A stretch of DNA of 40,000 nucleotides from Halobellus marinus (GTDB lineage Archaea > Halobacteriota > Halobacteria > Halobacteriales > Haloferacaceae): the NCBI RefSeq assembly GCF_032113415.1, contig NZ_CP134946.1, positions 1,614,333-1,654,332 on the forward strand. Reading direction: 5' to 3'. The notes under the pieces are model-generated. The model was not told the origin of the DNA, did no database searches, and saw only the letters and a program-made list of their open reading frames with translations. This document shows positions 11,795 through 40,000 of this stretch, one piece after another (position 1 is the first letter of the stretch; every line of letters starts with the position of its first letter). The translations under genes were made by a program, and so were the position numbers.

Positions 11795-11835
11795 GTACCG
11801 ACTGACGTTGTGTGTCTGTTCACCTTCCCTCGCGA

Positions 11836-11849: not shown

Positions 11850-11915
11850 GATACTATCTGTGTGAAAGACCGGGTTGAAATGGATTTAGGTACTTCCAGG
11901 CCCTACGTTTGTTTG

Positions 11916-12185: not shown

Positions 12186-12267
12186 TACTGATTACTCTCA
12201 CTTGTTACCGTCGAGCACCGCCAGCGGGGATGCGCTCGGCGGGAAAAGACGAGAGTAATCAGTATGA
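12183..12267 (+). repeat. 79-bp structured inverted-repeat element, copy A (TGA-flanked)
   Basis: TGA(12183-85)-[TACTGATTACTCTC AC TTGTTA CCGTCGAGC A CCGCCAGCGG GGATGC GCTCGGCGG GAAAAGAC GAGAGTAATCAGTA]-TGA(12265-67). The outer stem is 14-15 bp and perfect. The 5' TGA is the stop of the upstream gene. Confidence 0.85.
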
Positions 12268-12338
12268 GTCCCGCAGTTCTCCGCCGTCTCCTCTCCCGCA
12301 CCGCAACCGATATATGAGTTCCTCTCTCCAGCACAACC

Positions 12339-25504: not shown

Positions 25505-27259
25505 TCAATGGAGGAACGAGCGGAGCGCCTCGGTGTCCCACGCGTTCAGCACGTCGTCGGCCTCGCACCATCCGCGACGGGCCGTGTGAACACCGTACCG
25601 TGCGTAATCGAGAGAATCTGGCGCGTGTGCGTCGGTGTCGACGGCGATCACCGCGCCGGCCTCGGTGGCGACGCGGACGGGGTCCCCGTGGAGGTCCAGG
25701 CGCGCGGGATCGGCGTTGATCTCCAGGGCGGTTCCCGCGTCCGCGGCGGCCGCAGCGAGTCGCTCGATGTCGAGTTCCATTCCCTCGCGCTCGTTGATCC
25801 GCCGGCCGGTAGGGTGGCCGAGAATGTCGACGCTCGGATGTTCGGCGGCCCGAATCAGCCGCTTCGTCGCTGTTTCGCGGTCCTGCCGCAGCGCGGCGTG
25901 CGGCGACGCGACCACGACGTCGAGTTCCGCGAGGAGGTCGTCGTCCGTCGAGAGGTCCCCCCCGGCGCCGATGTTCGTCTCGACGCCGTGCAGCAGCGTC
26001 AGATCCGGGTCGACCTCCCGGCGAACCTCGTCGATCGCGTCCATCTGCTCCCGTAGGTCCTCGTCGTCCAGACCGACGTCGCCGACCATCCCCGGGCCCG
26101 TAGCGTGGTCTGTCACCGCGTAGTAGTCGTACCCACGCGCTTCGGCGGCGGTGACCATCTCGGCCAGTTCGGCACGGCCGTCGGACCAGTCCGTATGCGT
26201 GTGGAGGTCGCCGCGGAGGCCGCCCGGTTCGATCAGGTCCGGAAGCGTTCCCTCGCGGGCGGCCTCGATTTCGCCATTCCCCTCGCGGAGTTCCGACGGA
26301 ATTAGCGGGAGATCGAGCGCCGCGTACATCGATGCCTCCGTCTCGCCGGCGATTCGTTCGCCGACGCGCTGGCCGGCGTCCGGATCATCGACGTCGGACA
26401 CGTCGAAGACGCCGTACTCGTTCATCTTGAGGTCCCGTTCGATCGCGACGTTTCGGAGTTCCACGTTGTGGTCTTTGCTGCCGGTGAAATACTGCAGCGC
26501 CGCGCCGAACTCCTCGGGCACGACCACGCGGAGGTCCACGCGAATGCTGTCGGCGCGGACGCTCGCTTTGTGCTCCCCGGCCTCGATGGTGTCTGTCGCG
26601 GCCGGCCATTCGACGAAGGCGTCGACGACGCGCTCGCTGGCCTCGGAAGCCACGAGGACGTCCACGTCGCCGATGGTATCGCGCCAGCGACGGATCGAGC
26701 CGGCAACCGACGCCTCCGCGACGGCGTCGACGTCTCGGAGGTACGCGAGGAGGTCGTCCGCGAGCGGCCGTGCGTCGCCCAGCCGTTCCCGCTCCCCCGC
26801 TTCCCGAGCGAATTCGACGTTCTCTCGGATGTTGTCCTCCGTCTTCGCGCCGAAGCCCCTGACCTCGCGGATCTCCTCGTTCTCGGCTGCCTCGGCCAGT
26901 TCGTCGAGGGTCGTGATTCCGAGTGCGTCGTAGAGTTTCCCGACCGTCTTCGGACCGACCCCCTCGACGCGCGTCAGCGCCGCCATATCGACCGGCAGGT
27001 CCTCGCGGAGCGCTTCCAGTTCCTCGATCTCCCCGGTTTCGACGTACTCGACGATCTTCCCGGAGATCGCGTCGCCGACGCCGTCGATCCGCTCGACTGC
27101 TTCGGCGCCCTCTGCGGCCAGGCCTTCGATCGGTTCTGGATGCTCGCGGACGTTCTCGGCGGCCCGCCGGTAGACGTTCGGCTTGTACTCGACGCCGTCG
27201 GCTTCCAGCAGATCCGCGAACGCTTCGAGCTGCCGCGCGACCTCGGCGTTGCGGCTCAC
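25505..27259 (-). CDS. polX: DNA polymerase X family with C-terminal PHP phosphoesterase domain
   Basis: 584 aa. HhH 'IDGVGDAISGKI' and 'VEGVGPKTVGKLY'. Pol-beta-like core 'GSIRRWRDTIGDVDVLV'. PHP 'GDLHTHTDWSDG'. Confidence 0.95.
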   Translation of the reverse strand: MSRNAEVARQLEAFADLLEADGVEYKPNVYRRAAENVREHPEPIEGLAAEGAEAVERIDGVGDAISGKIVEYVETGEIEELEALREDLPVDMAALTRVEGVGPKTVGKLYDALGITTLDELAEAAENEEIREVRGFGAKTEDNIRENVEFAREAGERERLGDARPLADDLLAYLRDVDAVAEASVAGSIRRWRDTIGDVDVLVASEASERVVDAFVEWPAATDTIEAGEHKASVRADSIRVDLRVVVPEEFGAALQYFTGSKDHNVELRNVAIERDLKMNEYGVFDVSDVDDPDAGQRVGERIAGETEASMYAALDLPLIPSELREGNGEIEAAREGTLPDLIEPGGLRGDLHTHTDWSDGRAELAEMVTAAEARGYDYYAVTDHATGPGMVGDVGLDDEDLREQMDAIDEVRREVDPDLTLLHGVETNIGAGGDLSTDDDLLAELDVVVASPHAALRQDRETATKRLIRAAEHPSVDILGHPTGRRINEREGMELDIERLAAAAADAGTALEINADPARLDLHGDPVRVATEAGAVIAVDTDAHAPDSLDYARYGVHTARRGWCEADDVLNAWDTEALRSFLH

Positions 27260-27702
27260 AGCTGACCTCCGCCCGCCGTGCTGTTGACGTCCTCGTGGCC
27301 CAGCGCCTGCTGGAGGAAGTTCATCCAGCGCTTGCGGTCTGCAGTCTCTTGCACCGCTGACTCCTGTTCGAGATCGACGGGTCGGAGCTGTTCGAGCGCG
27401 TTCAGGGCGCGGTCGATACCGATGATACTCTCGGCGAGGCGTTCGCCCTCCTCGTAGGACACCTCGCCGTCCTCGATCCGTCCGAGGCGCTCCAGTCGCT
27501 CGCGGCGGAGGTTCTTCTTCGCGCGGTCGACCCGGTCGCGTTCGCCCGCTGGGATGGTGTCGCGCCGTTTGATCTCGAAGACGAACTCGCGGAGTTCGAC
27601 CTCCTCGCCCTGTACCTCGATCGCGTCGGGGATCTCCGCGCCGACCGTCGCGGCCTCGCGGTTGACGCGCTCCAGCAGCTGCTTTCTCTCGAACTCCTTC
27701 AC
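27256..27702 (-). CDS. coiled-coil hypothetical protein, first gene of the polX operon
   Basis: 148 aa, GTG start, charged and helical. Its stop overlaps the polX ATG by 4 nt. Confidence 0.65.
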   Translation of the reverse strand: MKEFERKQLLERVNREAATVGAEIPDAIEVQGEEVELREFVFEIKRRDTIPAGERDRVDRAKKNLRRERLERLGRIEDGEVSYEEGERLAESIIGIDRALNALEQLRPVDLEQESAVQETADRKRWMNFLQQALGHEDVNSTAGGGQL

Positions 27703-27880
27703 GGCTTCGTCACTTCTTGGGCCGGCGCCTACTTCGCTCCTTCGCCGTGCGTTCCGGAGCGAACGGGGGGCTCTCTCCCCTCGAGGACGTCTCCCCGCCT
27801 CGAAGAGCCGAGTCGTCCGAGACGCCGGCAGATGGCGCGGAGACGAAACTTCTTATGCCGCTGCCCCGGAAACGGACGGT

Positions 27881-29236
27881 ATGGGATTGTTCGACCGACT
27901 GCGCGGCTCGGATCAGCCGCGCGTCGCTTTCATCGGTATCGACGGCGTCCCCTACAGCCTCCTCGCCGAGCACCCCGACCGGTTCCCTAACTTCGCGGCC
28001 ATCGCCGAGGAGGGCAGCGCGGGCCCGATCGAGAGCATCGTCCCGCCGGAGTCGTCGGCGTGCTGGCCTTCACTGACGACCGGCGTGAACCCGGGGGAGA
28101 CCGGCGTCTACGGCTTCCAGGACCGCGAAAACGGTTCCTACGATACGTACGTGCCGATGGGTCGGGACGTCCAGGCGACCCGCCTGTGGGACCGCGTGAC
28201 CGACGCGGGCCGGAAGGCAAGCGTGCTGAACGTCCCCGTGACCTTCCCGCCACAGCGGAACGTCCAGCGGATGGTCTCCGGCTTCCTCTCGCCGGGCGTG
28301 AAGAAGGCGGCCCACCCCGAGAAGTTCCGGGACGAACTCAAGGCGCTGAACTACCGCATCGACGTCAACGCCAAACTCGGCCACGACGACGACAAAAGCG
28401 AGTTCATCGAGAACGCCCACGAGACGCTCGACCGGCGCTACGAGGCCTTCTCGGACGTGATCGGCCGCGACGACTGGGACCTCTTTTTCGGCGTCTTTAT
28501 GACCACCGACCGGGTGAATCACTTCCTGTTCAAGGACTACGAGGAGGACGGTGAAAACAGAGAGGCGTTCTTCGAGTTCTACGAGGCGGTCGACGAGTAC
28601 GTCGGCAAACTCCGCGAGTCGCTTCCCGAGGACGTGACGCTCGTCGTCGCCTCCGACCACGGCTTTACCTCCTTGGATCACGAGGTCCACTGCAACGCCT
28701 GGCTCGAAGAGCAGGGGTGGCTCTCCTACGAGGACGACGACCACGATGAACTCGGCGACATCGCCGACGACACCCGCGCGTACTCGCTGATTCCCGGGCG
28801 GTTCTACATCAACCTCGAAGGGCGCGAGCCGCGCGGCAGCGTCTCACAGGATGAGTACGAAAAGACGCGCGCGGAACTCAAAGCCGAACTCGAAGCGCTC
28901 GAAGGTCCCGAGGGTCGGAAGGTGGCGGACCGCGTCGTCGAGAAAGAGGAGGCGTTCCGCGGCGACCACGACGACATCGCACCGGATCTGGTGGTCGTCC
29001 CGAACCACGGGTTCGACCTCAAATCCGGGTTCAAGGGCCACGACGACGTGTTCGGCTCCGGCCCGCGCAACGGAATGCACAGCTTCGACAACGCCTCGCT
29101 GTACGTCGACGATCCGGACGTCGACATCGAGGGCGTCACGCCCGACCTCTACGACATCGCGCCGACGGTCCTCGATCTGATGGACGTCGACTACTCCCGT
29201 GCGGAGTTCGACGGCGCGAGTCTTCTCAAAGGATAG
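27881..29236 (+). CDS. alkaline-phosphatase-superfamily enzyme (type I phosphodiesterase / nucleotide pyrophosphatase family)
   Basis: Internal ATG of ORF 27554..29236, giving 451 aa. 'FIGIDGVPYSLL', 'PPESSACWPSLTTGVNPGETGVYGF' and 'VVASDHGF'. Confidence 0.8.
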   Translation: MGLFDRLRGSDQPRVAFIGIDGVPYSLLAEHPDRFPNFAAIAEEGSAGPIESIVPPESSACWPSLTTGVNPGETGVYGFQDRENGSYDTYVPMGRDVQATRLWDRVTDAGRKASVLNVPVTFPPQRNVQRMVSGFLSPGVKKAAHPEKFRDELKALNYRIDVNAKLGHDDDKSEFIENAHETLDRRYEAFSDVIGRDDWDLFFGVFMTTDRVNHFLFKDYEEDGENREAFFEFYEAVDEYVGKLRESLPEDVTLVVASDHGFTSLDHEVHCNAWLEEQGWLSYEDDDHDELGDIADDTRAYSLIPGRFYINLEGREPRGSVSQDEYEKTRAELKAELEALEGPEGRKVADRVVEKEEAFRGDHDDIAPDLVVVPNHGFDLKSGFKGHDDVFGSGPRNGMHSFDNASLYVDDPDVDIEGVTPDLYDIAPTVLDLMDVDYSRAEFDGASLLKG

Positions 29237-29240
29237 ACCG

Positions 29241-29250
29241 CTTTTTCTCC
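29241..29250 (+). terminator. T-run immediately after the stop codon
   Basis: 'CTTTTTCTCC' lies 5 nt after the TAG at 29234-36. T-runs act as archaeal termination signals. The function here is inferred. Confidence 0.35.
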
Positions 29251-29270
29251 TCGGCGACAGGCCGACAGCG

Positions 29271-30353
29271 CTACAGTAGACTGTCGAGGTCGTCGTTGGT
29301 CCACTGGTCGGCGGGGTCGTCGCCGCTGAGGTCCGTCTCAGCCGCTTGGGCCTCCTGTGCACGCTCCATAAACGTCTCCAGTCGATCCGAGCGCTCGACC
29401 CCGCCGAGCAGGACCAGCGTCGCCAGCCGATCGCTCGACAGCGGAAAGTCGCCGCCACGGACCTGGAGGCTCCCGGTCTCCTCTTCGACCCAGCGTCTGG
29501 CCCGCTCGACCCCCTTCCGCGGGATGCTGTCGTTGTCGCCGGCCACGATCAGCAGAGCCGCGTCCGCATCGGTGGCGTCGGGCAGGCTCGATCCAGTCAG
29601 GAGGGCACGTCTGGCGTTGCTCATCACGGTGTTGATGTTCTCCTCCGGATCAGAAGCCGCTTCCGCGGAGGCGTAGCCGATGGCCGCGATGCCGCCGTCC
29701 CGGAGAGTGTTGATGATCTCCGAGGAGTCGACGACGCTCTCGGCGACGCCGTCGACGACTTCGCCAGCTGCGAGCAGCAGGCCGACTCGCTTGGCGATTT
29801 CCTCGTTGATCGCGTCGAAGCCCTCGGTGAGACTCTCGCCCGTCGAGCGGAACGCGTCGTTGTCGACAAGCAGGAGGGCGTCGGCCTCGCGGGCGAACGT
29901 CTTCAAAGACCGCCCCGCGTTGACCTGGTACAATGCGCCTTCGTCGCGGCCGGGGAGGATCCCGAGGCCGTAAACTGGGACGTCGTAGATCCGCTTCAGT
30001 TCCTTCGTGAGGACGGGAGCGCCACCGCTGCCGGTGCCGCCGCCGAGTCCGGCGACCACGAAGATCGATTCGGTGCCGGCCGTGATATCGCCCTCGAGTG
30101 CTGAGAGCACCTCGCGGCTGTCGGACTGCATCACTTCGGCACCGAGTTCGTTGTCGCCGCCGACGCCCTGGCCCTTTACGCGGTCCTGTCCGATCAGGAC
30201 GGTCTCGAACGGCAGCTCACGGAGGTCGTTTTTCGCGGTGTTGACCGCGACGGCGCCGCGGACGGCGTCGAATCCCATCCGCTCGTCGTACTCGACCAGT
30301 TCGCGGGCGAGTTTCCCGCCGGCCTGGCCGACGCCGATCAGGACGGACTTCAT
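29271..30353 (-). CDS. cetZ: tubulin/FtsZ-superfamily GTPase, CetZ-type
   Basis: Internal ATG of ORF 29271..30698, giving 360 aa. 'MKSVLIGVGQAGGKLA', the tubulin signature 'VAGLGGGTGSGGAPV', and 'LLLVDNDAF'. It lacks an FtsZ-like C-terminal peptide and has an acidic tail. Confidence 0.8.
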   Translation of the reverse strand: MKSVLIGVGQAGGKLARELVEYDERMGFDAVRGAVAVNTAKNDLRELPFETVLIGQDRVKGQGVGGDNELGAEVMQSDSREVLSALEGDITAGTESIFVVAGLGGGTGSGGAPVLTKELKRIYDVPVYGLGILPGRDEGALYQVNAGRSLKTFAREADALLLVDNDAFRSTGESLTEGFDAINEEIAKRVGLLLAAGEVVDGVAESVVDSSEIINTLRDGGIAAIGYASAEAASDPEENINTVMSNARRALLTGSSLPDATDADAALLIVAGDNDSIPRKGVERARRWVEEETGSLQVRGGDFPLSSDRLATLVLLGGVERSDRLETFMERAQEAQAAETDLSGDDPADQWTNDDLDSLL

Positions 30354-30394
30354 ATCTTGTGAGAGAACGAGACGCACCTTCAACGTTGGTGCCG

Positions 30395-30431
30395 CCGGAG
30401 GTTTATAACTAAAGCCGCGGCCACGGCCGGT
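30395..30431 (+). promoter_or_regulatory. promoter/leaderless-start module P1 (TATA + conserved CGCGGCCA box)
   Basis: 'CCGGAGGTTTATAACTAAAGCCGCGGCCACGGCCGGT' directly precedes ATG 30432. The TATA lies at -30..-24 and CGCGGCCA at -16..-9. Confidence 0.7.
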
Positions 30432-31184
30432 ATGCCGACCGATCCCACGGGCACGGACGCATTCGCAGCCAGTCTCGATCCGGTCGAACGCGCAGTCGAC
30501 GACGCCCGGACTCCCGAGAGGGAGCCGTCGTCGCCGACCGAGACAGCCCAGCAGTCGACTGCCGGTGATCAGATGAACTCGGGGCAACAGCTGTCGACTG
30601 CTGGTGATCAGATGAACTCGAGCCAGCAGGCGTCGGCTGCTGACTCCCAGATGGACGACGCCCAGACAGACCAAACCAAAGACGACACCAGGGCTCACGA
30701 GGAGCGGCTCTCGGAACTCGAACGTCGCGTGACCGCCATCGAAGCCGAACTCGAATCAGTGCGCGGGATGCTGGACGGCGTCAACGCCATCGACGAAGCC
30801 GTCGAGCGGCGAGCGTCGGTCGCTCTTGCGAAGGTCGAGACGCTCGAACGGGCGTTCGACGACGGGCGAAAAGGCGACCCGCGATCCGCAACTGCAGCCA
30901 CCCAACGCGACGGATCCGCCCCGAGTGAGCAAACACGCCGGACAGAGCGGGAGGACACACGACCGCCGGATTCCGGCGGGCGACAGCCAGCACCGGATAC
31001 TGATGAGGAACACGCCGCAGGTGCGGATCGCGGCCGAGGAGTGTCTGCGGGCGGATATCCTCGGGTGAGAGACAGTACCAGTCACAGCAGCGGAGCGTCG
31101 GTCGGTGGGGGATCCGATTCCCAACTACAGGAAGATAGCGAGAGCGACTCCCTCGCGTCGCGGCTGCGCAGCGCCTTCCAGTGA
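30432..31184 (+). CDS. acidic, largely disordered protein with central coiled coil; first gene of the T4P-like cluster
   Basis: 250 aa with 13-aa repeats 'TAGDQMNSGQQLS/TAGDQMNSSQQAS'. Coiled coil 'HEERLSELERRVTAIEAELESVRGMLD'. Leaderless-type promoter P1. Confidence 0.65.
   Translation: MPTDPTGTDAFAASLDPVERAVDDARTPEREPSSPTETAQQSTAGDQMNSGQQLSTAGDQMNSSQQASAADSQMDDAQTDQTKDDTRAHEERLSELERRVTAIEAELESVRGMLDGVNAIDEAVERRASVALAKVETLERAFDDGRKGDPRSATAATQRDGSAPSEQTRRTEREDTRPPDSGGRQPAPDTDEEHAAGADRGRGVSAGGYPRVRDSTSHSSGASVGGGSDSQLQEDSESDSLASRLRSAFQ
30558..30665 (+). repeat. 39-bp in-frame tandem repeat (2 units plus a degenerate third)
   Basis: Units at 30558-30596 and 30597-30635 ('ACTGC(C/T)GGTGATCAGATGAACTCG...'). 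A third, diverged unit starts at 30636. Confidence 0.85.
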
Positions 31185-31651
31185 TCCGGCTGGTTATCGC
31201 CGCGGTCCTGACGCTGGCGACGGTCGCTGCCGCGACACCGGCAGTCGATCACGCGCGGGCCACTCGCACCGATACGATGATCGAGGGGACTGTCGATCGG
31301 CTCGAACGGGCGGGAGCGCGTCTCGCCGCCGGCTCGGACGCGATACCGACCCGGCGACGGGCTGCGGTCCGGCGCGTCAGCGTTCGATACCCCTCGGAGT
31401 CGCTGACGGCCGCGAGACCGGCCTTTCTCGCTGTCGGGGGCCGACCCGGAGGACCGGGGAACCGCTCAGTCGTCGCCTACGCTCTGGAGTCATCGCCGAC
31501 GCGCCGCCGGACGCTCTCGTTTCCGGTGCCGATCCGGACCCCGGACGGGCCCGTGGTCTTCCGGGACGACGGACGCTATTCGGTCTCGATCGCGCTCGTC
31601 GCCGAGGCGGGTCGCCCGACGCTCGTCGTCTCGCGTTCGGAATCACCGTAG
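31181..31651 (+). CDS. small protein with N-terminal hydrophobic anchor/signal, function unknown
   Basis: 156 aa. The GTG start overlaps the upstream TGA (GTGA). N-terminal 'MIRLVIAAVLTLATVAAATPAV'. Confidence 0.6.
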   Translation: MIRLVIAAVLTLATVAAATPAVDHARATRTDTMIEGTVDRLERAGARLAAGSDAIPTRRRAAVRRVSVRYPSESLTAARPAFLAVGGRPGGPGNRSVVAYALESSPTRRRTLSFPVPIRTPDGPVVFRDDGRYSVSIALVAEAGRPTLVVSRSESP

Positions 31652-31690
31652 CTCCGTGGGGTCGGCACGGATCGCAGGGGGCCGAACCCG

Positions 31691-31727
31691 CCGGAGGTTT
31701 ATATACGAGTACGCGGCCAGCCGCGGT
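31691..31727 (+). promoter_or_regulatory. promoter/leaderless-start module P2
   Basis: 'CCGGAGGTTTATATACGAGTACGCGGCCAGCCGCGGT' directly precedes ATG 31728. The first 13 nt and the CGCGGCCA box are identical to P1 at identical spacing. Confidence 0.7.
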
Positions 31728-33950
31728 ATGCTTCCGAACAGCGATGGTCCTTCGAACGACGAGGGAACGGCGAAAATTTCGGATGTACGGGGCGCTCTGG
31801 CAGCCGTCACATCGTCGCTCGCGGGCGTCGACTCCGTGTTTGGCAGTCCGGACCGGAAAGCAGGGAATCCATCCCCGGACGGCGGCGTCCCGGCCGACGC
31901 CTGTAAGTGTCAGTCCTCCATCGAGCGGCCGCAGGGAACCGGGATCACGGATCGCCGGGAACTCGTTGTCGACGCGACTGCTTGCCCAGGCGACGGCGAC
32001 CTCGCAGCCGCCCCCGCCTGTCGATCGACCGTGATATCGGCGCTCGCAGACCGTGACGCGGACGTCGTTCGGACGCGGAGCGACGGCCGGGAGCGGACGT
32101 ACGCCGAGGAGTCGATGGGGCTCCTCCTCGCCGCGGGTCGCTTCGTCGAGCGTGTCGGGTTTCACGACGACTCGCTGGCCGAGCGGGCGCGCCGAGATCC
32201 CGTCGCCGCAGCGCACAGAGCAACCGGGCGAGCAGGAGCAGTCGCTCGCATCGCGGCCGAAACCGGCCTCACGGAGGGTGCCGCCCGCGTCGTCGGAGAG
32301 GCGACGGCGACCGGGAAGACCGACTCTACGCCGACCGGCGGCGACGCCTCCGTCGACCACCTGCCGCCGGGAAACGAAGACGCCTCGGTCGGCCGCCCGT
32401 CGCCGAGAAACGAAGACGCCTCCGTCAGCCACCTGTCGTCGAAGGACAGCGACGCCTCCGTCGATTACGACGATGTCCTGCGCGCCTACGTCGGACCGAC
32501 GCTATCCCGATGTCGGGTATCCCGCCGGCCACCGGACGCCCCGATCCGTGAGACCCGCGATCTCGAAACCGGCGCGACGGTCCGGATCGTCGAAGCGACG
32601 GATGGGCCCCGATATCACCTTGCTCCCGTCGCCCACGAGCTCGACGCCGACGCGACGGCGACACTCGCGGCCGCCTACGATGTCCTCGCGAACGGCTCCG
32701 TCGGCGGCGGTGACCGGGCCGCGGGACGGGCGATCAGGCGCGTTGCTGACACGGATGATCCGATGGAGACGCTAACTGCGGTCCTCGAACGGCACACCCG
32801 CGGGTTGGGCGTCCTCGAGCACCTCTTCGCCGATGCACGCGTCTCTGAGGTCGTGGTCTCGGCGCCGGTAACGGACTCGCCAGTCAGAGTCGTTATCGAC
32901 GGCGACCGCGTTCCGACGAACGTCCGGCTGACGCCCGACGGCGCCGCGTCCCTCGCCTCGCGCTTTCGACGGGAGAGCGGCCGCGCCTTCTCCCGCAGTT
33001 CCCCGACGCTCGATGCCGCGGTCGTCGCCGAGACCGGTCGACAGATCCGCGTCGCGAGCGTGACGGCGCCAGCCAGTGACGGTGTCGGATTCGCGTTTCG
33101 CGTCCGCGACGAGACGGCCTTCACGCTCGCGAGACTCGTGGCTGTCGGGTCGCTATCGCCCGCGGCGGCGGGGTTCCTCTCTCTCGTCGTCCAGCGCGGT
33201 GCGGCGACGATCGTCGCCGGCACGCGCGGCGCCGGCAAGACGACCCTCCTGGGAGCGCTCCTCTGGGAACTCCCCGAGTCGACGCGCCTGGTGAGCATCG
33301 AGGACACGCCGGAACTCCCGATCGAGGCACTCCGCGAGCACGGGCGTGACGTTCAGGCGCTTCATACTGATGTCGGGGAGGGAATCGAAGCGGCTGACAG
33401 CGCGGCCGGAGACGGGCGTGCGTTTTCGCCGACCGATGCCCTCCGGACAGCACTCAGACTCGGAGACGGCGCGCTCGCAATCGGCGAAGTCAGGGGCGAA
33501 GAGGCCGCCGCCCTCTACGAGGCGATGCGGATCGGTGCCCACGGCCACGCCGTCCTCGGGACAATCCACGGCGACTCCGCGGCCGCGGTCCGGGAGCGGG
33601 TCGTCTCGGATCTCGGCGTGCCGCCAGCCTCCTTCGCTGCGACGGACATCGTCGTCACCTGCGCCCACGACGGGGACTCCCGCCACGTCGCTGCAATCGA
33701 GGAGGTCCGTTCGACCGACGACGGGACGACCTTCGTCCCGCTGTACGAACGCGAGAACGCGAAGCTACACCCGACAGGCGTCGTGGCTCGCGGAGACAGC
33801 GCGGTCCTGGAACGGCTCCGTGCGAGCGGGGAATCATACGGCGACCTCCTCTCGCTACTGGAAGGGCAACGAAGGCGTTTCGAGCGGCTCGCGAGCGTCG
33901 GGCTGACCGCTCCCGGGGATCTCGATCGCTCGCACAGCGAGAGCCGATGA
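31728..33950 (+). CDS. type II/IV secretion system ATPase family (PilB/FlaI/TadA/VirB11-like) with ~390-aa N-terminal extension
   Basis: Walker A 'VAGTRGAGKTTLL', Walker B/Asp box 'RLVSIEDTPEL', 'IGEVRGEEA', His box 'LGTIHGDS'. Start set at ATG 31728, in frame with track ORF 31656 and 27 nt downstream of the P2 TATA. Confidence 0.9.
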   Translation: MLPNSDGPSNDEGTAKISDVRGALAAVTSSLAGVDSVFGSPDRKAGNPSPDGGVPADACKCQSSIERPQGTGITDRRELVVDATACPGDGDLAAAPACRSTVISALADRDADVVRTRSDGRERTYAEESMGLLLAAGRFVERVGFHDDSLAERARRDPVAAAHRATGRAGAVARIAAETGLTEGAARVVGEATATGKTDSTPTGGDASVDHLPPGNEDASVGRPSPRNEDASVSHLSSKDSDASVDYDDVLRAYVGPTLSRCRVSRRPPDAPIRETRDLETGATVRIVEATDGPRYHLAPVAHELDADATATLAAAYDVLANGSVGGGDRAAGRAIRRVADTDDPMETLTAVLERHTRGLGVLEHLFADARVSEVVVSAPVTDSPVRVVIDGDRVPTNVRLTPDGAASLASRFRRESGRAFSRSSPTLDAAVVAETGRQIRVASVTAPASDGVGFAFRVRDETAFTLARLVAVGSLSPAAAGFLSLVVQRGAATIVAGTRGAGKTTLLGALLWELPESTRLVSIEDTPELPIEALREHGRDVQALHTDVGEGIEAADSAAGDGRAFSPTDALRTALRLGDGALAIGEVRGEEAAALYEAMRIGAHGHAVLGTIHGDSAAAVRERVVSDLGVPPASFAATDIVVTCAHDGDSRHVAAIEEVRSTDDGTTFVPLYERENAKLHPTGVVARGDSAVLERLRASGESYGDLLSLLEGQRRRFERLASVGLTAPGDLDRSHSESR
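32343..32474 (+). repeat. 36-bp in-frame tandem repeat x3.6 within the ATPase N-terminal extension
   Basis: Units start at 32343, 32379, 32415 and 32451 ('GACGCCTCCGTC...'). They encode 'DASVDHLPPGNE / DASVGRPSPRNE / DASVSHLSSKDS / DASVDYDD'. Confidence 0.85.
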
Positions 33951-35704
33951 CTGGATCGCACGCCCGCATCCACAGGCTCGCACGCGGGCTGGCGAAGTGG
34001 TATCCGAGATCAGTCGAGCCGACGACGGAGCTTCGCCGCTCGCTTTCCTTTCTCGAAAGCGACCTCCGAGCGGAGACTGTCGTCCGCGCGGGCTACGTAG
34101 CCGCCCTCCCGAGCGCGCTACTGGTTATCTGCGCCCTGTCGGTCGCCGTCCCCTCGCTTCCGCTCGCGGCCACGCTCCCGGCAGCCGCCGGAATCGGCCT
34201 CGGGACGACGCACGCCCTGCACCGACTTCCGGTCGCGGCTGCGACACTCCGGCGGACCCGGGCGCTCGGTGACGCCCCCGGACTCGTCGCCCGCGCTGCG
34301 CTCCGGCTCAGACTCGATGCGACCCCCGAGCGCGCAGCGATATTCGCCGCCAGGACCGGCGACGGCCCGCTTGCCCGCAGCCTCGCAGCGCACGCGGATC
34401 GAACTCGCCTCGGCCCGGCAGCCGGGTTCGAGGCCTTCGCCGACGAGTGGCAGCCGTGGTTCCCCGCGCTCGAACGCTCGGTTTCGCTGCTTTCTGCCGC
34501 CGTCGAGGCGCCGACCGGCGAGCGGGAGAGCGCACTCGATCGCGCACTGGAGACGATCCTCGACGGCGCCCGGAGCGAGATGGCCGACTTCGCCGGCAAC
34601 GTCCGCGGACCGGCGAGTGGGATCTATGCGTTCGGGGTTCTCCTGCCCCTCGCGCTCGTCGGCGTGTTGCCCGCGGCCCGTGCCGCTGGCGTGGTCGTCC
34701 CTGCGACAGTGTTCATCGTACTCTACGACGTCGTCCTGCCGGTCGCACTCGTGGTTGCTGGCGTGTGGCTCCTCCTGCGCCGTCCGATTGCCGTGCCCCC
34801 GCCGCGGGTGACGAGGGCGCATCCCGACGTTCCATCGGGAGTGGCGCGCGGCATCGGCGCCGGGATCTGTGGGCTCGGCGTCGGGGCCATAGCTGGCTCG
34901 CTGGTCGCGACTTGGGCCACGCCGGTCGCCGCTGCGGGCCTTGGGACTGGCGCCGCGCTCGCGGTTCATTACCGTCCGATGCGGGCGGTACGTCGGGAAG
35001 TCCGGGAGATCGAATCCGGACTCGCTGACTCGACGGCGGTGGTCGGTCGCCGCGTGGGCGCCGGAGAATCAGTCGAGACGGCCATCGGAGCAGCCGCCGA
35101 GGCCACGACGGGACGGACTGCGGAACTCTTCGAATCCGCGGCTGGCGTCCAGCGTCGGCTGCGTGTCCCCATCTCCCGGGCGTTCCTCGGCGATCACGGC
35201 GCGCTCAGCGAGGTACCGAGCCCCAGGGCCCGTGCGACCGCCGAACTCTTTTCTGTCGCTGCCAGGGAGGGCCGTCCGTCCGGGCCGACACTCGTTACGC
35301 TGGCGGATCACCTGACAGAGCTCCGGCGAGTCCAGGCCGATGCACGCCGGGAGCTTGCGGCGATTACTGGTACACTCGCCCATACGGCGGCGCTGTTCGG
35401 GCCGCTCGTCGGCGGTGCGACCGTCGCGATGGCGACTCAGATGGCCGCGACGGAACCGACAGCCGTCGAGAGCGCCTCGCTGGGTGGCACTGCTGCACCG
35501 GGAGCCGCAACGCTCGCGCCGTCGACGCTCGGGATTGCCGTCGGCGTCTACGTGCTCGCGCTCGCGGTGATCCTCACCGCGGTGGCGACGGGCCTCGATC
35601 GCGGTCTCGATCGCTCGCTCGTCGGGTATCGCATCGGGCTGGCGATGTGTTCGGCGACGGCGGCGTATCTCGTGGCTTTCCTGGGTGCGTCGATGCTGTT
35701 CTGA
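33947..35704 (+). CDS. polytopic platform protein, T2SSF-like (PilC/TadB-C/FlaJ family)
   Basis: 585 aa with ATGA overlap to the ATPase stop. Two helical-domain + TM modules. The second fits the T2SSF pattern: 'GLADSTAVVGRRVGAGESVETAIGAAA...LVTLADHLTELRRVQADARRELAAITGTLAHTAALFGPL'. Confidence 0.75.
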   Translation: MTGSHARIHRLARGLAKWYPRSVEPTTELRRSLSFLESDLRAETVVRAGYVAALPSALLVICALSVAVPSLPLAATLPAAAGIGLGTTHALHRLPVAAATLRRTRALGDAPGLVARAALRLRLDATPERAAIFAARTGDGPLARSLAAHADRTRLGPAAGFEAFADEWQPWFPALERSVSLLSAAVEAPTGERESALDRALETILDGARSEMADFAGNVRGPASGIYAFGVLLPLALVGVLPAARAAGVVVPATVFIVLYDVVLPVALVVAGVWLLLRRPIAVPPPRVTRAHPDVPSGVARGIGAGICGLGVGAIAGSLVATWATPVAAAGLGTGAALAVHYRPMRAVRREVREIESGLADSTAVVGRRVGAGESVETAIGAAAEATTGRTAELFESAAGVQRRLRVPISRAFLGDHGALSEVPSPRARATAELFSVAAREGRPSGPTLVTLADHLTELRRVQADARRELAAITGTLAHTAALFGPLVGGATVAMATQMAATEPTAVESASLGGTAAPGAATLAPSTLGIAVGVYVLALAVILTAVATGLDRGLDRSLVGYRIGLAMCSATAAYLVAFLGASMLF

Positions 35705-35786
35705 TACTGATTACTCTCATCTCTGACCGCCGAGCGCCGCCAACGGGGATGGAGCTCGGCGGGGAAAAGTGAGAGTAATAGTATGA
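35702..35786 (+). repeat. 79-bp structured inverted-repeat element, copy B (TGA-flanked)
   Basis: TGA(35702-04)-[TACTGATTACTCTCA...CCGCCGAGC G CCGCCAACGG GGATGGA GCTCGGCGG GGAAAAG TGAGAGTAAT-AGTA]-TGA(35784-86). ~85% identical to copy A. The 5' TGA is the platform-gene stop. Confidence 0.85.
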
Positions 35787-35815
35787 CTGAGCTCTCACTC
35801 CGGCGCCAGTATCGT

Positions 35816-35852
35816 CCGAGCGTTTATATACGGGGACGCGGCCAACCGCCCT
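35816..35852 (+). promoter_or_regulatory. promoter/leaderless-start module P3
   Basis: 'CCGAGCGTTTATATACGGGGACGCGGCCAACCGCCCT' directly precedes ATG 35853. Same TATA and CGCGGCCA spacing as P1 and P2. Confidence 0.7.
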
Positions 35853-36332
35853 ATGTTCGACCTGCCGCTCGAAGCGTGGTACGGCTGGATCGGGCTGTCA
35901 CTGGCGGGCGTCGCGCTCGTCGGCGCGGCAGCCGGGCTCCCGACAGCACCGCCGCCGGACGCCGAAGCCGTCGCCGGGACGGTCGACCGCGTCGCGGCCG
36001 CCGAGTACACCGCGACCGGGGAGCATCCGCTCGAAGCCGACGAGATTCGGCTCGGGGTCCGTCGAATCGGGCTCCGCTCGGACGCTGGCACGGCGCACGC
36101 GACGCTGGCGTTCGGCCCCGTCACGCCCGTCCCCGTCGGCGACTCGCCGCTCCGAGACGTCCTGTATGGCACGTCCCCGAGCCGGGTCTTTGATTCGCCA
36201 CAGGCGTTCCGGGAAGCGATCGTCGGGGCGCGGGCCGATGGTCAGGACGCCACCTGGCGAGAGGTCGATCGAACGCTGATCGTCCGACGCGTCACCTGGG
36301 AGGGAGTGGATGTCGTCCTCGTCGATGCGTGA
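35853..36332 (+). CDS. N-terminally membrane-anchored protein, function unknown (cluster component)
   Basis: 159 aa. N-terminal 'WYGWIGLSLAGVALVGAAAGL' followed by a soluble domain. Leaderless-type promoter P3. Confidence 0.65.
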   Translation: MFDLPLEAWYGWIGLSLAGVALVGAAAGLPTAPPPDAEAVAGTVDRVAAAEYTATGEHPLEADEIRLGVRRIGLRSDAGTAHATLAFGPVTPVPVGDSPLRDVLYGTSPSRVFDSPQAFREAIVGARADGQDATWREVDRTLIVRRVTWEGVDVVLVDA

Positions 36333-36777
36333 GGCATCTCCGCGGGAACCCTGCAGGTCCTCTCGCGCATTCTCCACCCGCTCCCGAGCACAGACGACGC
36401 CGGTCGTGGCACTGATCGCTCTCCTTGCGGTCTGTACCGGCGTCTCGCTGTATGCTACCTCACTCGGGGCTGTGGTGCCCACGGGGACCGACAACGCGCT
36501 CGCCGAGCCGACGCTCGATCGCGTGTACGATGCTGTGAGTGAGGGCGGGGTGGTCTCGCCGGTCGGCCTCTCTCGTGCCGAGACCGTCGCGCCCGATGGG
36601 CATCATCTCGCAGTCGTGGTCACGACGCCCGATGGTCGCTGGACGAACGGACGGATGTCTCCCGCAGGAGCAGGTTCTCCCGAGACGGCTGTCGATACCG
36701 CCGATCGCCCGGTGAGTGTCGCGCTCGGCGACGGCAGCGTCGTCTGGGGTCGGCTCCGCGTTTACGTGTGGCGATGA
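36310..36777 (+). CDS. pilin-like protein candidate (basic N-terminus, then a hydrophobic helix)
   Basis: 155 aa. 'TRSRAQTTPVVALIALLAVCTGVSLYA' resembles a class III signal peptide ([KR][GA] followed by a hydrophobic stretch). An SD-like 'GGGAGGGAGTGG' precedes ATG 36310. Overlaps the upstream gene by 23 nt; ATG 36325 is an alternative start. Confidence 0.6.
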   Translation: MSSSSMREASPREPCRSSRAFSTRSRAQTTPVVALIALLAVCTGVSLYATSLGAVVPTGTDNALAEPTLDRVYDAVSEGGVVSPVGLSRAETVAPDGHHLAVVVTTPDGRWTNGRMSPAGAGSPETAVDTADRPVSVALGDGSVVWGRLRVYVWR

Positions 36778-37721
36778 ACGCGGCGATCGATGCGGTGCTG
36801 TGCCTGCTACTCATCTCGGCGGCCGTCGTCGGACTCGTCGGGGTCGACAGCCCGTCGACGGAAGACCCCGGACGGGCCGACGCCGTCGCGGCGACGCTTG
36901 CGACCACGACTGCGCAGGTCAACTACTCACTCGCGCCCGGACTCGAAGCCGCACGGGACTCCGAGAGGACACCGGGCAACCGGAGCAGCGCAGCGAGGAG
37001 TGGCTCACGGACCGGTGCGGCTGATTCGCCCGAACTCGATCGGACGGCACACGGTAGCCTCGGCGGACTCCTCGCGCGCGCCGCGACCGCAAACAGCGGT
37101 CTCGCCGGGAGTGGGATCACAGATGCGAACGGAACGTCCGCTGTGTCGGAACGGACGCCACTCACGCGAACCCGGATCGACTTCCGTCGCGCTGTTCGCG
37201 ACGCGGTACGAGCCCGAACCGGCGCGCGGATCCGCATCGATGCGATCTGGCGACCGTATCCTGGAGCCCCGATCGGCGGCAGAGCCACCGTCGGCCCCGA
37301 GCCCCCGTCCACCGGGGTGGACGCCGCGACGCTCACGGTTCCCACTCGCGCCGATCCGGTCTCCGAGTCGGCGACGACCGATTTCGATGCGCTCGGGGCC
37401 GCGGTCGCAAACCGGACCGTTGCCGTCCTCGTGCCGCCCGGTCCCGCGCGGATCACGCTCCGTGGTGACGACCCGACCGCTGCCCTGGTTCGACATCGAT
37501 ACGACCGACTTGCAGCCGTGACGAACACCTCGCTCTCGACGCCGCTTGCGACTGAAGACACGGACGCGGCGAACGCTCGGCTCGCAGACGCGCTTGCGCC
37601 GCGGATGGCCGCGGACCTTCGGAATCGGTACGACGGCCCAACGGCGGCGGCCGAGAACGTCTCCGTCTCGTCGGTCCGGATCGTCGTCCAAACGTGGGAC
37701 GCCGGTGAGGAGGCCCGCTGA
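36774..37721 (+). CDS. N-terminally anchored protein, function unknown (cluster component)
   Basis: 315 aa from the ATG at 36774, which forms an ATGA overlap with the upstream stop; the track start 36768 is a GTG. N-terminal 'MNAAIDAVLCLLLISAAVVGLVGV'. Confidence 0.65.
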   Translation: MNAAIDAVLCLLLISAAVVGLVGVDSPSTEDPGRADAVAATLATTTAQVNYSLAPGLEAARDSERTPGNRSSAARSGSRTGAADSPELDRTAHGSLGGLLARAATANSGLAGSGITDANGTSAVSERTPLTRTRIDFRRAVRDAVRARTGARIRIDAIWRPYPGAPIGGRATVGPEPPSTGVDAATLTVPTRADPVSESATTDFDALGAAVANRTVAVLVPPGPARITLRGDDPTAALVRHRYDRLAAVTNTSLSTPLATEDTDAANARLADALAPRMAADLRNRYDGPTAAAENVSVSSVRIVVQTWDAGEEAR

Positions 37722-40000
37722 TGCGTCTCGCTGACGACGACCGCGCGCGGGTCCCGTTCGCGCTGATCGGCGTGTTGCTCCTGGTCGGCAGTTCGACCTT
37801 CGCAGCCTCGCTTGCGACGACAGGCCCCGCTCCGGTCGATCGATCGGCCGACGTCACGGCCGATCGCGTGGACGCCGAGGCGACGGCGGCACTCAGAACG
37901 GCAGTCCGTGACGCTGCCCGAGCCGCCGCCCGCGAACCGGTCACTGCCGCCGCGGAAAGTGAGGCGGGAGGGGCGTTGGCGGGAGCAAACACCTTTCGTC
38001 GATATCTCCGGCTCCGAATTTTCCTCGCCGCGCGGGACGCGATGGCGACCGTCGAACACCGGCGCGGGACGGCCCGGGCGCGCGTCTCCCTCGGGGAATC
38101 CGTCGACACCGTCCCGGAGGCGCTCCGTCACGTTTCGATATCGGGCGTCGACGACGGGACGGCGCTCCGCGTGACGATCCGCAATCTGACGATGACAATC
38201 GAGGAGAATGGCCGGGTGGTCGACAGAGAACGCGTGAATCGGACCGTCACCGTCGGTGTGCCCGTGCTGGCGCTGCACGACCGCACCCAGCGGTTCCAGT
38301 CCCGGCTCGACGCCGATCCGATCGAGTCGCCCGGGCTCGCGCGTCGACTGACGGTCGGCGTGACCGCAATCGCACAGGCGCGAGGACTCGGACAGTACGG
38401 CGGGCTTCCGATCGAGAACGTCCTCGCCAACCGACACGTCGCGCTCTCGACGAACGCGGGACTCCTCGACGCCCAGCGGGCCGCGTTCGGCCGAAGCGAC
38501 CCCGACGCGGCGGCCGGCGTGCGCAGGGCGACGCTTCAGACGGGCGTCACGGACGTGTTCGACCCGCGGACGAACTCCCAGGTCGTGTCCGCAGCGACGG
38601 GACAACTGCCCGATCCGAACGCGCCCGAGCGGCGCGACGACGCAGACAGCGGAGCGCTCCCGGCGACGCGGACGATTTCGGTGGGCGTCAACGGGACCGC
38701 TGACCAGGCGTTTCTGGGACTGCTCCGCGGTGAGAACGGAGACCAGAGCCTCGAATCGATCAAGCGCGACGGCTACACCGCGACTGTCTCCGTCGGCGCC
38801 GACGTTTCGACCGTCCGAAACGACCACCCACCGTCGCCGCGCGCACCCGGCGAGAACTGGACGCTCGTCTACTCTCACACCTCGATTGACGTCTCGGTCG
38901 AGGGTAGCGGGCGCCGAACCGACGTCGTCCGGGCTGGGCTCGGAGAGAGACGCCTTTACACCGCAACCCGACGGGTCGTCGAGCGTCACACCATCGAACG
39001 GACGTGGGTGAAGGTCAACGAGACGCCGCGGACGACGACTGCATCCTGGCGCGACATCTCCCGCGTCCGGGTGACTGTCCAGGGTCGCCTCAGTGACGTT
39101 CCGGGCCCGTCTGAACCTGTCCGCCCGGTTTTCGAGTCTGCCGGTCCGCTTTCCGGCCCCAACCTCAGAGAGGGGGATGCAGCGAGTCGCCGTCTGGTGT
39201 CGGACCTCGGCGGTGCCGACGCCATCGCCCGGCGGGCAGTGACCGGTGGGCGAACGAGTGCGTCGACGACAGTCACTGGGGATCGACCGCGGGATCTCAA
39301 GCCGTGGGTCTACGAGGACCTCACAGATCTCCGCGACCGCGTCAGAGAACTCTCCGTCGAGGTGCCCGCCAGCGACGCCGCTACCGGTCGCGTCAACGGT
39401 GCAGCCCGGCTCGCCGCGCTCGTTCGCGAGCGGCGTGCGGAACTGATCGATGCGCCATCCCGGTACGACGGCGTGGCCGATCGGACCCGCGTGGCTGCCC
39501 GGGCGGCGTATCTCGATCGGGTCATCGCTCGTCTCGACGCCCGTGCGGAACAGACCCGCGAGCAGAACGCCGGCATCGGTCGCGCGTTCGACGCGAAGGG
39601 GATCGCCGCCTCGCGTGCAAATAAGCTCGCGGATCTCACGCCCGATCCGCCATCACCGGAAAAAGAGTTCGGCAGTCGATCGGGCGTGCGCGGGGAGACC
39701 ACGCTGGTCCCGGACGGCGATCCTGCGTACCTCTCATCTGAACCGGTCGACGGCGCGCTCGTCGATGGCATCGCGGACGACGAGCAGTACGTCGGGCTTG
39801 CGGTCCGGAACGTGAACCTCTTCGCCGTTCCCTACGGCGACACCGCCGACATCGTCACCCGGACGCTCCTGGGAGATCCGGGACGGGTCTCGCTGCGCGC
39901 CGCTGGCCAGTCGCTCATCGCCGCCGGTCGAGCGCTTGCGTCGTCGTCGAACGCGACGCTCCGGGCCCGCAGAAATCACCTGCAAACGAAAGTCGCCGAC
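37721..40000 (+). CDS. large N-terminally anchored protein, 5' partial (>760 aa, continues beyond the window), function unknown
   Basis: Not in the ORF track because it has no stop in the window. By hand translation, frame 2 is open from ATG 37721 to position 40000. The ATG overlaps the upstream TGA (TGATG), with SD-like 'GGTGAGGAGG' 10 nt upstream. N-terminal 'MRLADDDRARVPFALIGVLLLVGSSTFAASLA'. High GC3. Confidence 0.7.
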   Translation, partial: MRLADDDRARVPFALIGVLLLVGSSTFAASLATTGPAPVDRSADVTADRVDAEATAALRTAVRDAARAAAREPVTAAAESEAGGALAGANTFRRYLRLRIFLAARDAMATVEHRRGTARARVSLGESVDTVPEALRHVSISGVDDGTALRVTIRNLTMTIEENGRVVDRERVNRTVTVGVPVLALHDRTQRFQSRLDADPIESPGLARRLTVGVTAIAQARGLGQYGGLPIENVLANRHVALSTNAGLLDAQRAAFGRSDPDAAAGVRRATLQTGVTDVFDPRTNSQVVSAATGQLPDPNAPERRDDADSGALPATRTISVGVNGTADQAFLGLLRGENGDQSLESIKRDGYTATVSVGADVSTVRNDHPPSPRAPGENWTLVYSHTSIDVSVEGSGRRTDVVRAGLGERRLYTATRRVVERHTIERTWVKVNETPRTTTASWRDISRVRVTVQGRLSDVPGPSEPVRPVFESAGPLSGPNLREGDAASRRLVSDLGGADAIARRAVTGGRTSASTTVTGDRPRDLKPWVYEDLTDLRDRVRELSVEVPASDAATGRVNGAARLAALVRERRAELIDAPSRYDGVADRTRVAARAAYLDRVIARLDARAEQTREQNAGIGRAFDAKGIAASRANKLADLTPDPPSPEKEFGSRSGVRGETTLVPDGDPAYLSSEPVDGALVDGIADDEQYVGLAVRNVNLFAVPYGDTADIVTRTLLGDPGRVSLRAAGQSLIAAGRALASSSNATLRARRNHLQTKVAD

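Follow-up and report, generated by a model that had tools for sequence, protein, structure and literature searches.

A probable Halobellus copy of the haloarchaeal 4F type-IV-filament gene cluster, beside cetZ2

The 40,000-nt stretch of Halobellus marinus DNA analyzed here (contig NZ_CP134946.1, positions 1,614,333 to 1,654,332; hereafter the window, whose own coordinates are used throughout) carries eight plus-strand genes that diverge from a minus-strand gene for the tubulin-superfamily protein CetZ2. We read this region, with a probability of about 0.8, as the Halobellus copy of the haloarchaeal type-IV-filament cluster called subclade or subsystem 4F (the pilB2/pilC2 regulon), a machine for assembling surface filaments. 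Makarova et al. (2016; PMC4858521) described subclade 4F, a type IV pilus system that occurs in Halobacteria and in certain Methanomicrobia, as having an extra N-terminal Cys-rich ATPase domain, a coiled-coil component unique to the halobacterial system, and an ftsZ-like neighbor. All three are present in the window: the secretion ATPase has a Cys-rich N-terminal domain, the cluster opens with a gene for a coiled-coil protein (DUF7310), and the CetZ2 gene lies 78 bp away on the opposite strand. The likeness to 4F as it appears in that paper and in a 2026 preprint (10.64898/2026.04.22.720090) extends to a TadC-like platform, a set of pilin-like proteins, and a large surface protein; nothing substantive sets the window cluster apart, and it is another member.

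A first-pass annotation, made from the letters of the window without database searches, had recognized a type-IV-pilus/Tad-like module beside a divergent CetZ gene, which is upheld by the intact ATPase motifs, the polytopic platform protein, and the pilin-like anchored proteins. Its further view that the module is an orphan or distinct system does not hold, the system having been described as subclade 4F (PMC4858521), as the pilB2/C2 regulon (Brown & Duggin 2023, PMC9856176), and as subsystem 4F, cetZ2 adjacency included (10.64898/2026.04.22.720090). The component set and its pairing with cetZ2 were already known in 2016, 2023, and 2026, and the window holds another orthologous copy rather than a new kind of system. 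No counterpart has been experimentally characterized (10.64898/2026.04.22.720090), as the first-pass annotation had also supposed. The uncharacterized machine is a legitimate experimental target, and the presence of a tubulin-like gene beside type IV pilus loci in two archaeal lineages has been recognized since 2016/2023.

Gene content and family assignment

The cetZ gene and the first of the eight plus-strand genes are separated by a divergent gap of 78 bp (30354-30431). An open reading frame (ORF) listing and translation bore out the gene coordinates, the gap, and all junctions first given for the region, namely GTGA at 31181-31184, ATGA at 33947-33950, a 23-nt overlap at 36310-36332, ATGA at 36774-36777, and TGATG at 37719-37723. 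The features observed are as follows.

29271-30353, minus: cetZ2, a tubulin-superfamily CetZ of the CetZ2 subfamily, 360 amino acids (PF21011 CetZ_C, PF00091)
30377-30387, minus: conserved element 5' of cetZ2 (plus strand, CCTTCAACGTT; cetZ strand, AACGTTGAAGG)
30402-30434, plus: promoter-like motif P1, TTTATAA-N-CGCGGCCA-N7-ATG, terminating on the DUF7310 start codon
30432-31184, plus: DUF7310 coiled-coil protein, 250 amino acids (PF23991, 8.5e-15)
31181-31651, plus: DUF7311 protein, 156 amino acids (PF23993, 1.4e-41)
31698-31730, plus: promoter-like motif P2, TTTATATA-N-CGCGGCCA-N7-ATG, terminating on ATG 31728
31728-33950, plus (ORF open from GTG 31656): PilB/TadA/FlaI-type secretion ATPase (PF00437 T2SSE, 2.7e-21)
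33947-35704, plus: PilC/TadC-type polytopic platform protein, 585 amino acids (PF00482 T2SSF, 9e-6)
35823-35855, plus: promoter-like motif P3, TTTATATA-N-CGCGGCCA-N7-ATG, terminating on the DUF7283 start codon
35853-36332, plus: DUF7283 protein, 159 amino acids (PF23954, 1.2e-56)
36310-36777, plus: DUF7285 protein, 155 amino acids (PF23956, 1.1e-33)
36774-37721, plus: DUF7284 protein, 315 amino acids (PF23955, 3.3e-86)
37721-40000, plus: DUF7286 large surface protein, truncated at the end of the window (PF23957, 4.7e-261)

A DUF7283 profile built from a 12-sequence alignment retrieved 58 loci from species-representative genomes, onto which the window proteins were mapped by tblastn. The order DUF7310-DUF7311-ATPase-TadC-DUF7283-DUF7285-DUF7284-DUF7286 is kept in most of the 58 loci, which span at least 13 genera (Halobellus, Halopelagius, Halogeometricum, Halogranum, Halegenticoccus, Salinirarus, Salinigranum, Haloferax, Haloplanus, Halorientalis, Natronomonas, Haloarchaeobius, and Halorussus). 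By homologue searches, the genome nearest to the window is that of H. ordinarius ZY16, with 89-98% amino-acid identity over the region; there, sufD, sufB, and sufC follow DUF7286 on the other strand, and the cluster therefore ends after DUF7286. One locus departs from the common spacing, and a second may do so. About 1.3 kb of extra DNA separates the platform gene from DUF7283 in locus L036, and in L050 the tblastn match to the platform stops ~0.9 kb before DUF7283, which could reflect an insertion or a diverged C-terminus.

What marks the cluster as a type IV filament system is an ATPase with its four motifs, an adjacent platform protein (a marginal match), and class III substrates in DUF7285 and DUF7286. 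The ATPase motifs are intact in the translation (Walker A GTRGAGKTT, Asp box LVSIEDTPEL, Walker B ALAIGEVRGEE, and His box GHAVLGTIHG), and the protein consists of an N-terminal extension of ~330 amino acids and a C-terminal catalytic domain. The extension contains C-x-C-x24-C-x11-C, at residues 83, 85, 110, and 122 of the 764-amino-acid ORF (codons 31902-32021), and the four Cys are kept in 98% of 46 orthologues when ATPases from related loci are aligned; the motif is probably a metal-binding module. The tetracysteine motif of bacterial GspE/PilB sits in the C-terminal domain, whereas this one is N-terminal, and a relaxed scan (E <= 10) found no Pfam match for the N-terminal 348 amino acids. 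The linker of the extension also holds an in-frame tandem repeat of 36 nt x 3.4 at 32343-32463 (..DASV.. units).

Of the three profile checks proposed at the outset, PF00437, PF00482, and PF00091, all gave matches, at 2.7e-21, 9e-6, and 7.6e-30, respectively. The best NCBIfam matches of the ATPase are the TadA family (TIGR03819, 5.2e-34) and FlaI (76 bits against a cut-off of 550), both far below cut-off; because it falls far under the equivalog cut-offs for FlaI, TadA, PilB, and GspE alike, the ATPase is not an archaellum or bacterial-type motor. Its best matches in the PDB are Archaeoglobus GspE2 (2OAP), CpaF (1.7e-16), and FlaI. The close homologues listed are all haloarchaeal and bear only generic names. 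H. volcanii is not among the best 120 ATPase homologues listed, so that the probable orthology to PilB2 is indirect and rests on PMC9856176 and on other Haloferax species, three of which (L021, L022, and L025) have the same layout as the window. The platform gene is ATGA-coupled to that of the ATPase, and its T2SSF match scores 26.1 bits against a cut-off of 25.2.

The remaining six proteins, among them the anchored ones that the first-pass annotation had called unrecognizable, all match curated Pfam families well above threshold (DUF7310, DUF7311, DUF7283, DUF7285, DUF7284, and DUF7286). No mention of these names was found in the literature searched. By a hydrophobicity scan, the five anchored proteins have a single transmembrane segment apiece, at the N-terminus, and the platform has six or more; the coiled-coil protein has none. 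This last protein, whose Pfam name is 'coiled-coil region DUF7310', is acidic and has a disordered N-terminal part, in which an in-frame tandem repeat of 39 nt x 2.7 occurs at 30549-30653 (TAGDQMNS.QQ.S units). It is a candidate for the arCOG07564 of Makarova 2016, an equivalence between Pfam and arCOG that we infer.

Class III (prepilin-type) signals were judged by eye against the FlaFind-type consensus, and N-termini were compared across related loci. The two N-termini that had been flagged as class III at first sight, those of DUF7285 and DUF7286, are the same two whose signals are conserved, across more than 50 orthologues. In ~54 loci, DUF7285 has the canonical signal, in which a short basic presequence closing with R-[GA] precedes Q-[VT]-[ET]-P and then a run of hydrophobic residues. 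Judged on this signal, DUF7285 is the best pilin candidate of the cluster. DUF7286 begins with the conserved M-R-L-A-D-D-x-R-[AG]-R-V-P-F-A-L-V-G-V-L-L-L-V, that is, a nine-residue presequence ending R-[AG] and followed by an unusual Arg at +1 (DDxR[AG]RVPFALVGVLLLV); it probably carries a class III signal too. The match to DUF7286 covers positions 1-753 of the 1000-position profile, and the gene is therefore cut by the window; the full-length protein has 1019 amino acids in H. ordinarius, the closest relative. The full-length orthologue in locus L003 scores 1148 bits and has no C-terminal anchor.

Three anchored proteins begin otherwise. DUF7311 opens with the anchor MIRLVIAAVL (transmembrane residues 4-22), has no class III cleavage motif, and keeps MIR[VL]V[LV]AA in 27 loci. 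DUF7283 opens with MFDxPxDAWYxWxGL and has neither a presequence nor a cleavage motif. DUF7284, which contains six N-x-S/T sequons, starts directly at the hydrophobic domain in the window (MNAAIDAVLCLLL) and likewise in Haloferacaceae; its orthologues in Halorientalis, Halorussus, and Natronomonas start R-[AG]-[IV]-S-T-V-L-D. Confident AlphaFold2 models of DUF7283 (predicted local distance difference test, pLDDT, 87.4) and DUF7285 (pLDDT 73.3) each have an N-terminal helix, at residues 32-52 in the latter, and then an alpha/beta head, a pilin-like architecture. That the anchored proteins are duplicates of one pilin was considered and not borne out, as hhalign comparisons among DUF7311, DUF7283, DUF7285, DUF7284, DUF7286, and DUF7310 gave probabilities of at most 5.4%. 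The anchored proteins of the cluster are pilin-like in architecture only.

Several better-known systems share part of this inventory. The PilB3-PilC3 and PilA1-6 system of H. volcanii (euryarchaeal clade 2) likewise has an ATPase, a platform, and class III pilins that are cut by PibD and can be encoded apart, but its ATPase belongs to another clade and lacks the N-terminal Cys domain, and the system has no DUF7310, DUF7311, or DUF7283-7286 proteins and no cetZ neighbor. It makes adhesive pili by experiment, whereas a filament of the window locus is a prediction. The bacterial Tad/Flp pilus (CpaF/TadA, TadB/C) supplies the nearest bacterial ATPase models, which are of TadA/CpaF type, and the platform protein of the window is TadC-like; the likeness is confined to the motor. 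The window cluster has no Flp pilin, secretin, TadZ, or TadD/G, and its pilin-like proteins belong to archaeal DUF families. The archaellum (ArlI/ArlJ with ArlF/G/H/X or C/D/E) has a homologous motor pair and accessory monotopic membrane proteins. The ATPase reaches only 76 of the 550 bits set for the FlaI model, and archaellins, ArlF/G/H, and ArlCDE/X are all missing from the cluster and from the other ORFs selected from the window.

Three promoters with a shared motif

The cluster had at first been taken as a single coupled operon. It is better described, on the strength of its upstream sequences, as three putative transcription units with a shared cis element: DUF7310-DUF7311; ATPase-platform; and DUF7283-DUF7285-DUF7284-DUF7286. 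The composite motif consists of TTTATAWA, a short spacer, CGCGGCCA, 7 nt, and ATG. It has exactly three matches in the 40-kb window, where 0.02 are expected, and all three are on the plus strand inside the cluster, each ending on a start codon (30432, 31728, and 35853). P1 and P2 also have GCCGGAGGTTTATA in common, as well as GCCGGAGG directly 5' of the TATA box. The arrangement is not peculiar to the window: upstream of DUF7283, a TATA-like box at -30/-31 and ACG(C/G)G(A/G)CCA at about -17 to -9 are found at a fixed distance in nearly all of 57 loci examined, and in 1.09 Mb of related loci, searched on both strands, 62 of the 63 matches to the strict pattern fall at the three promoter positions. 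The spacing from TATA box to ATG suggests leaderless transcripts, and the transcripts of the cluster are probably of this kind.

The second motif bears on the start of the ATPase gene. The ORF as listed opens at GTG 31656, just after the DUF7311 stop codon, and this GTG had been taken as the start. P2, however, sits in the first 24 codons of that ORF and ends exactly on ATG 31728, so the true start is most likely ATG 31728. The annotated ATPase of H. ordinarius, of 716 amino acids, fits a start at the equivalent ATG in locus L003 (motif 5998-6030).

Three promoters that share a cis element from which cetZ2 is excluded have no precedent in the 4F papers, nor do those papers contain the presequence loss in DUF7283 and DUF7284 or the lineages without cetZ2 at the site. 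The shared element makes co-regulation testable and gives a handle for finding pilins encoded in trans. The corrected ATPase start, the conserved four-Cys motif, and the clear cases of the cluster surviving without cetZ2 alongside are the other additions made here.

When metagenomes were scanned for the motif in a stringent form, it was found on at least 120 contigs. Among the matches listed, the genes behind the motif include those for the 4F ATPase, DUF7283, and DUF7310-like proteins. The motif also directly precedes stand-alone genes for proteins with class III signals, which are flanked by housekeeping genes. Some encode Pilin_N pilins (MASRGVSPLVGV...; PF07790, 1.7e-10; L079, L094, L121, L137, and L148), and others encode DUF7382 immunoglobulin-like proteins with a class-III-like RGIEGLP signal (L064, L071, L100, L127, and L166). 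Both kinds of protein are candidate trans-encoded subunits of the 4F machine and offer a lead for the missing major subunit, for which Makarova et al. proposed a supply in trans (PMC4858521).

The idea that the motif marks a pilus-specific regulon was rejected. Among the metagenome matches listed, it also precedes unrelated genes (TctA, DUF3006, NucS-like, Cas4-like, DUF7096) and a small RNA, so the motif is that of a promoter class or of a broader regulon. About 43 distinct copies of the motif among these matches are followed by this RNA of ~90 nt, at L091:356-485, L134:2397-2526, L124:9400-9529, and some 40 further loci from metagenomes (alignment A5). The RNA starts RTG-NNN-TGA, a two-codon start-stop, and ends CTGTTCGCC; the genes downstream of it are heterogeneous. 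It contains two covarying helices arranged as a pseudoknot: 85.6% of cells are paired compared with 65.8% in shuffles, 14 of the 16 pairs show compensatory changes, and 0 of 500 shuffles scored as high. No Rfam family matched it at gathering thresholds.

CetZ2 as neighbor and possible partner

The minus-strand gene matches CetZ_C at 2.6e-66 in addition to Tubulin at 7.6e-30. It scores 534 bits to PDB entry 4B45 and 330 to 4B46, which are H. volcanii CetZ2 and CetZ1, respectively (Brown & Duggin 2023, PMC9856176); by these scores, the window CetZ is a CetZ2 orthologue. In the same study, cetZ2 adjoins the pilB2/C2 regulon in most Haloferacales and Halobacteriales and not in Natrialbales, and the conserved neighbors include a phosphodiesterase arCOG (arCOG01377-type). 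The window shares with the H. volcanii pilB2/pilC2 regulon both the cetZ2 adjacency and the arCOG01377-type phosphodiesterase neighbor.

The first-pass annotation had paired the cluster with cetZ and made conservation of that pairing in related genomes a point on which its proposal turned. Conservation is partial. Forty-two of the surveyed loci have enough upstream sequence, and a CetZ2-like gene (65-95% identical) lies divergent and within 3.5 kb of the ATPase gene in 29 of them; in the other 13 it is absent there. These 13 include all informative Natronomonas, both Halegenticoccus, Halobellus salinus, and a few others. With 29 loci on one side and 13 on the other, the adjacency of cetZ2 is both common and old, yet dispensable. 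With or without cetZ2, the flanking phosphodiesterase gene keeps its place, and in several of the loci without cetZ2 it borders directly on the cluster. In Halegenticoccus soli, an unrelated gene for a 386-amino-acid multi-pass membrane protein occupies the cetZ2 position between the phosphodiesterase gene and the cluster (L010:3729-4889), and in H. tardaugens (L018) both flanks are directly adjacent; at these two sites, cetZ2 was lost or replaced. Separately, four Halorussus genomes (L027, L028, L044, and L058) have the DUF7283-7286 module apart from the genes for the ATPase and platform, and in L027 and L058 the module adjoins the phosphodiesterase gene, with cetZ inverted nearby.

The region upstream of cetZ2 contains no copy of the cluster promoter motif. 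What is conserved there is a different element, AACGTTGAAGG on the cetZ strand, which lies 24-34 nt before the cetZ2 ATG, a distance that most Haloferacaceae loci keep; in Halorientalis, AATCAAAG stands in its place. This element is the probable core promoter of cetZ2. A bidirectional TATA box shared by cetZ2 and DUF7310 was considered and rejected, cetZ2 having its own conserved element 24-34 nt 5' of the ATG. Because the two upstream elements differ and cetZ2 lacks the cluster motif, simple co-regulation of cetZ2 with the cluster is disfavored, though possible.

These observations bear on a tentative proposal, one that we think has the odds against it, that CetZ2 is a working partner that positions, scaffolds, or times 4F assembly at the cell edge, possibly via DUF7310. 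The divergent adjacency in 29 of 42 loci extends across genera in which DUF7283 is only ~50% identical, and the suggestion that type IV systems may co-opt CetZs has been raised by Brown & Duggin (PMC9856176) and the possibility is also raised in the 2026 preprint (10.64898/2026.04.22.720090). An independent-looking association of cetZ with a different type IV pilus system is known in Thermococcales (PMC9856176, PMC4858521): the clade 1 locus has a CetZ-family gene embedded in it or beside it, but differs in its ATPase clade, pilin families, and CetZ group, and the association appears to have arisen independently. Set against this, the cluster is kept where cetZ2 is absent from the site (13 of 42 loci, all informative Natronomonas and both Halegenticoccus included), cetZ2 occurs without the cluster in Natrialbales (PMC9856176), no genome of which is among our 58 loci, and the motif of the three cluster promoters is absent upstream of cetZ2. 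Moreover, the same pattern would result if the cluster had been inserted once beside cetZ2 in an ancestor and then inherited vertically, which explains the adjacency as well as functional coupling does. The first functional study of CetZ2 (a 2026 mBio paper), in which the protein keeps the plate shape in stationary phase and forms dynamic patches at cell edges, makes no mention of pili. A functional tie to CetZ, as first suggested for this locus, is thus possible but unproven; the lineages without cetZ2 in this position and the difference in promoters weaken it somewhat.

Assembly model and its alternatives

As the 4F cluster that we take it to be, with cetZ2 on one side and, on the other in the closest relative, the suf genes, the region would work as follows. 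Three probably leaderless units would be transcribed from promoters with one common cis element. A hexameric PilB-type ATPase with an N-terminal four-Cys domain would drive the PilC/TadC platform in the membrane, and the platform would pull pilin-like proteins, by the hydrophobic helices at their N-termini, out of the bilayer and stack them into a surface filament or a short pseudopilus. PibD, encoded elsewhere, would cut DUF7285 and DUF7286. The four tightly coupled genes of increasing size for DUF7283, DUF7285, DUF7284, and the ~1000-amino-acid DUF7286 resemble those for minor pilins, and their products would most likely form a priming or tip complex, the largest being the distal surface protein. 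The bulk subunit of the filament would probably be a stand-alone PilA/Pilin_N pilin encoded elsewhere. DUF7310, as a cytoplasmic coiled coil, and the membrane-anchored DUF7311 would be accessory proteins on the cytoplasmic and the membrane side. The genes present, their families, their synteny, and the motifs of signals and promoters are shown directly; filament assembly and the roles of the individual proteins, like any tie to CetZ2, are what we infer from them.

A number of findings weigh against this assignment. The selected ORFs of the window and the 20-kb locus of H. ordinarius contain neither a PilA/Pilin_N major pilin nor a prepilin peptidase, and the 20-kb related loci gave no peptidase either. 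The gene for the prepilin peptidase (PibD/FlaK) normally lies elsewhere in the genome. Three of the five anchored proteins are without a cleavable class III signal in this genome; none of DUF7311, DUF7283, DUF7285, DUF7284, and DUF7286 matches Pilin_N (PF07790) or another pilin family at E <= 10; profile-profile comparison by hhalign detects no relationship of the DUF families to one another; and no solved pilin resembles the head of DUF7283 or that of DUF7285 (best Foldseek E 0.14 and 0.05, template-modeling score at most 0.32). The platform match to T2SSF is marginal, just above threshold. The 4F label is based on the diagnostic features and two other papers rather than on an ATPase phylogeny, and one paper files H. 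volcanii PilB2 under 4C, not 4F. Finally, no filament has been attributed to this type of locus (10.64898/2026.04.22.720090).

Some of the same findings would also fit a machine that builds no extended pilus but a short pseudopilus or membrane-anchored surface complex that displays or exports DUF7286, comparable with the type II secretion pseudopilus or the Sulfolobus bindosome. We consider this doubtful, at perhaps one chance in a handful or slightly better. The cluster itself contains no major pilin; only DUF7285 has a canonical class III signal, and DUF7283, DUF7284, and DUF7311 look like uncleaved anchors. The ATPase has a match to the model of the bindosome ATPase BasE, weak at 1.2e-13, far below cut-off, and one among matches to other models. 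In H. volcanii, visible pili come from pilBC3 only, and the role of the other loci is unclear (10.64898/2026.04.22.720090). On the other side, the cluster motif precedes stand-alone Pilin_N genes in metagenomes, so that the major subunit may come in trans, and in H. volcanii different PilB/C pairs have been shown to use one another's pilins.

Third-position GC is 0.69-0.82 in the cluster genes (30432-40000), compared with 0.84-0.88 in cetZ2 and the phosphodiesterase, DUF5788, and PolX genes (25505-30353), which is compatible with a foreign origin or with weak codon bias. That the cluster is a horizontally acquired passenger, silent or decaying and with no current function, its adjacency to cetZ2 an accident of the insertion site, is very improbable: the lower third-position GC, the horizontal origin and element-like distribution proposed in the literature for the ATPase/platform pair (PMC9856176, PMC4858521), and the lack of a known phenotype (10.64898/2026.04.22.720090) would agree with it, but eight intact ORFs with their order, overlaps, signals, four-Cys motif, and three promoters are kept across at least 13 genera at 35-60% protein identity, conservation that is not expected of decaying DNA.

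A more speculative extension of the 4F assignment joins the separate threads. In it, 4F would be no ordinary adhesion pilus but a CetZ2-associated envelope machine of stationary phase, the time at which CetZ2 is induced and patrols the cell edge, and part of a wider programme of TATA-N-ACG(C/G)G(A/G)CCA-N7-start promoters that also takes in unlinked pilins and the pseudoknotted RNA, itself previously undescribed. We regard this as a long shot. If true, it would describe a cytoskeleton-coupled surface organelle with its own regulon.

The rest of the window is unrelated to filaments as far as its selected ORFs go. Pilin_N proteins, archaellins, FlaF/G/H, and prepilin peptidase are absent from these ORFs, in agreement with the first reading of the window, and the ORFs in question encode FKBP, cytochrome oxidase, SAM synthetase, glycosyltransferases, Usp, MscS, peroxiredoxin, PolX, DUF5788, and the type I phosphodiesterase. 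Over ~2 kb (10364-12318), there is no ORF of convincing coding composition, apart from a weak one of 177 amino acids at 11655-12185 that has no Pfam match. On the minus strand at 4234-6960, the 908-amino-acid stop-to-stop translation matches cytochrome oxidase subunit I over residues 112-555 and subunit III over residues 701-907, and this looks like a fused COX1-COX3 gene.

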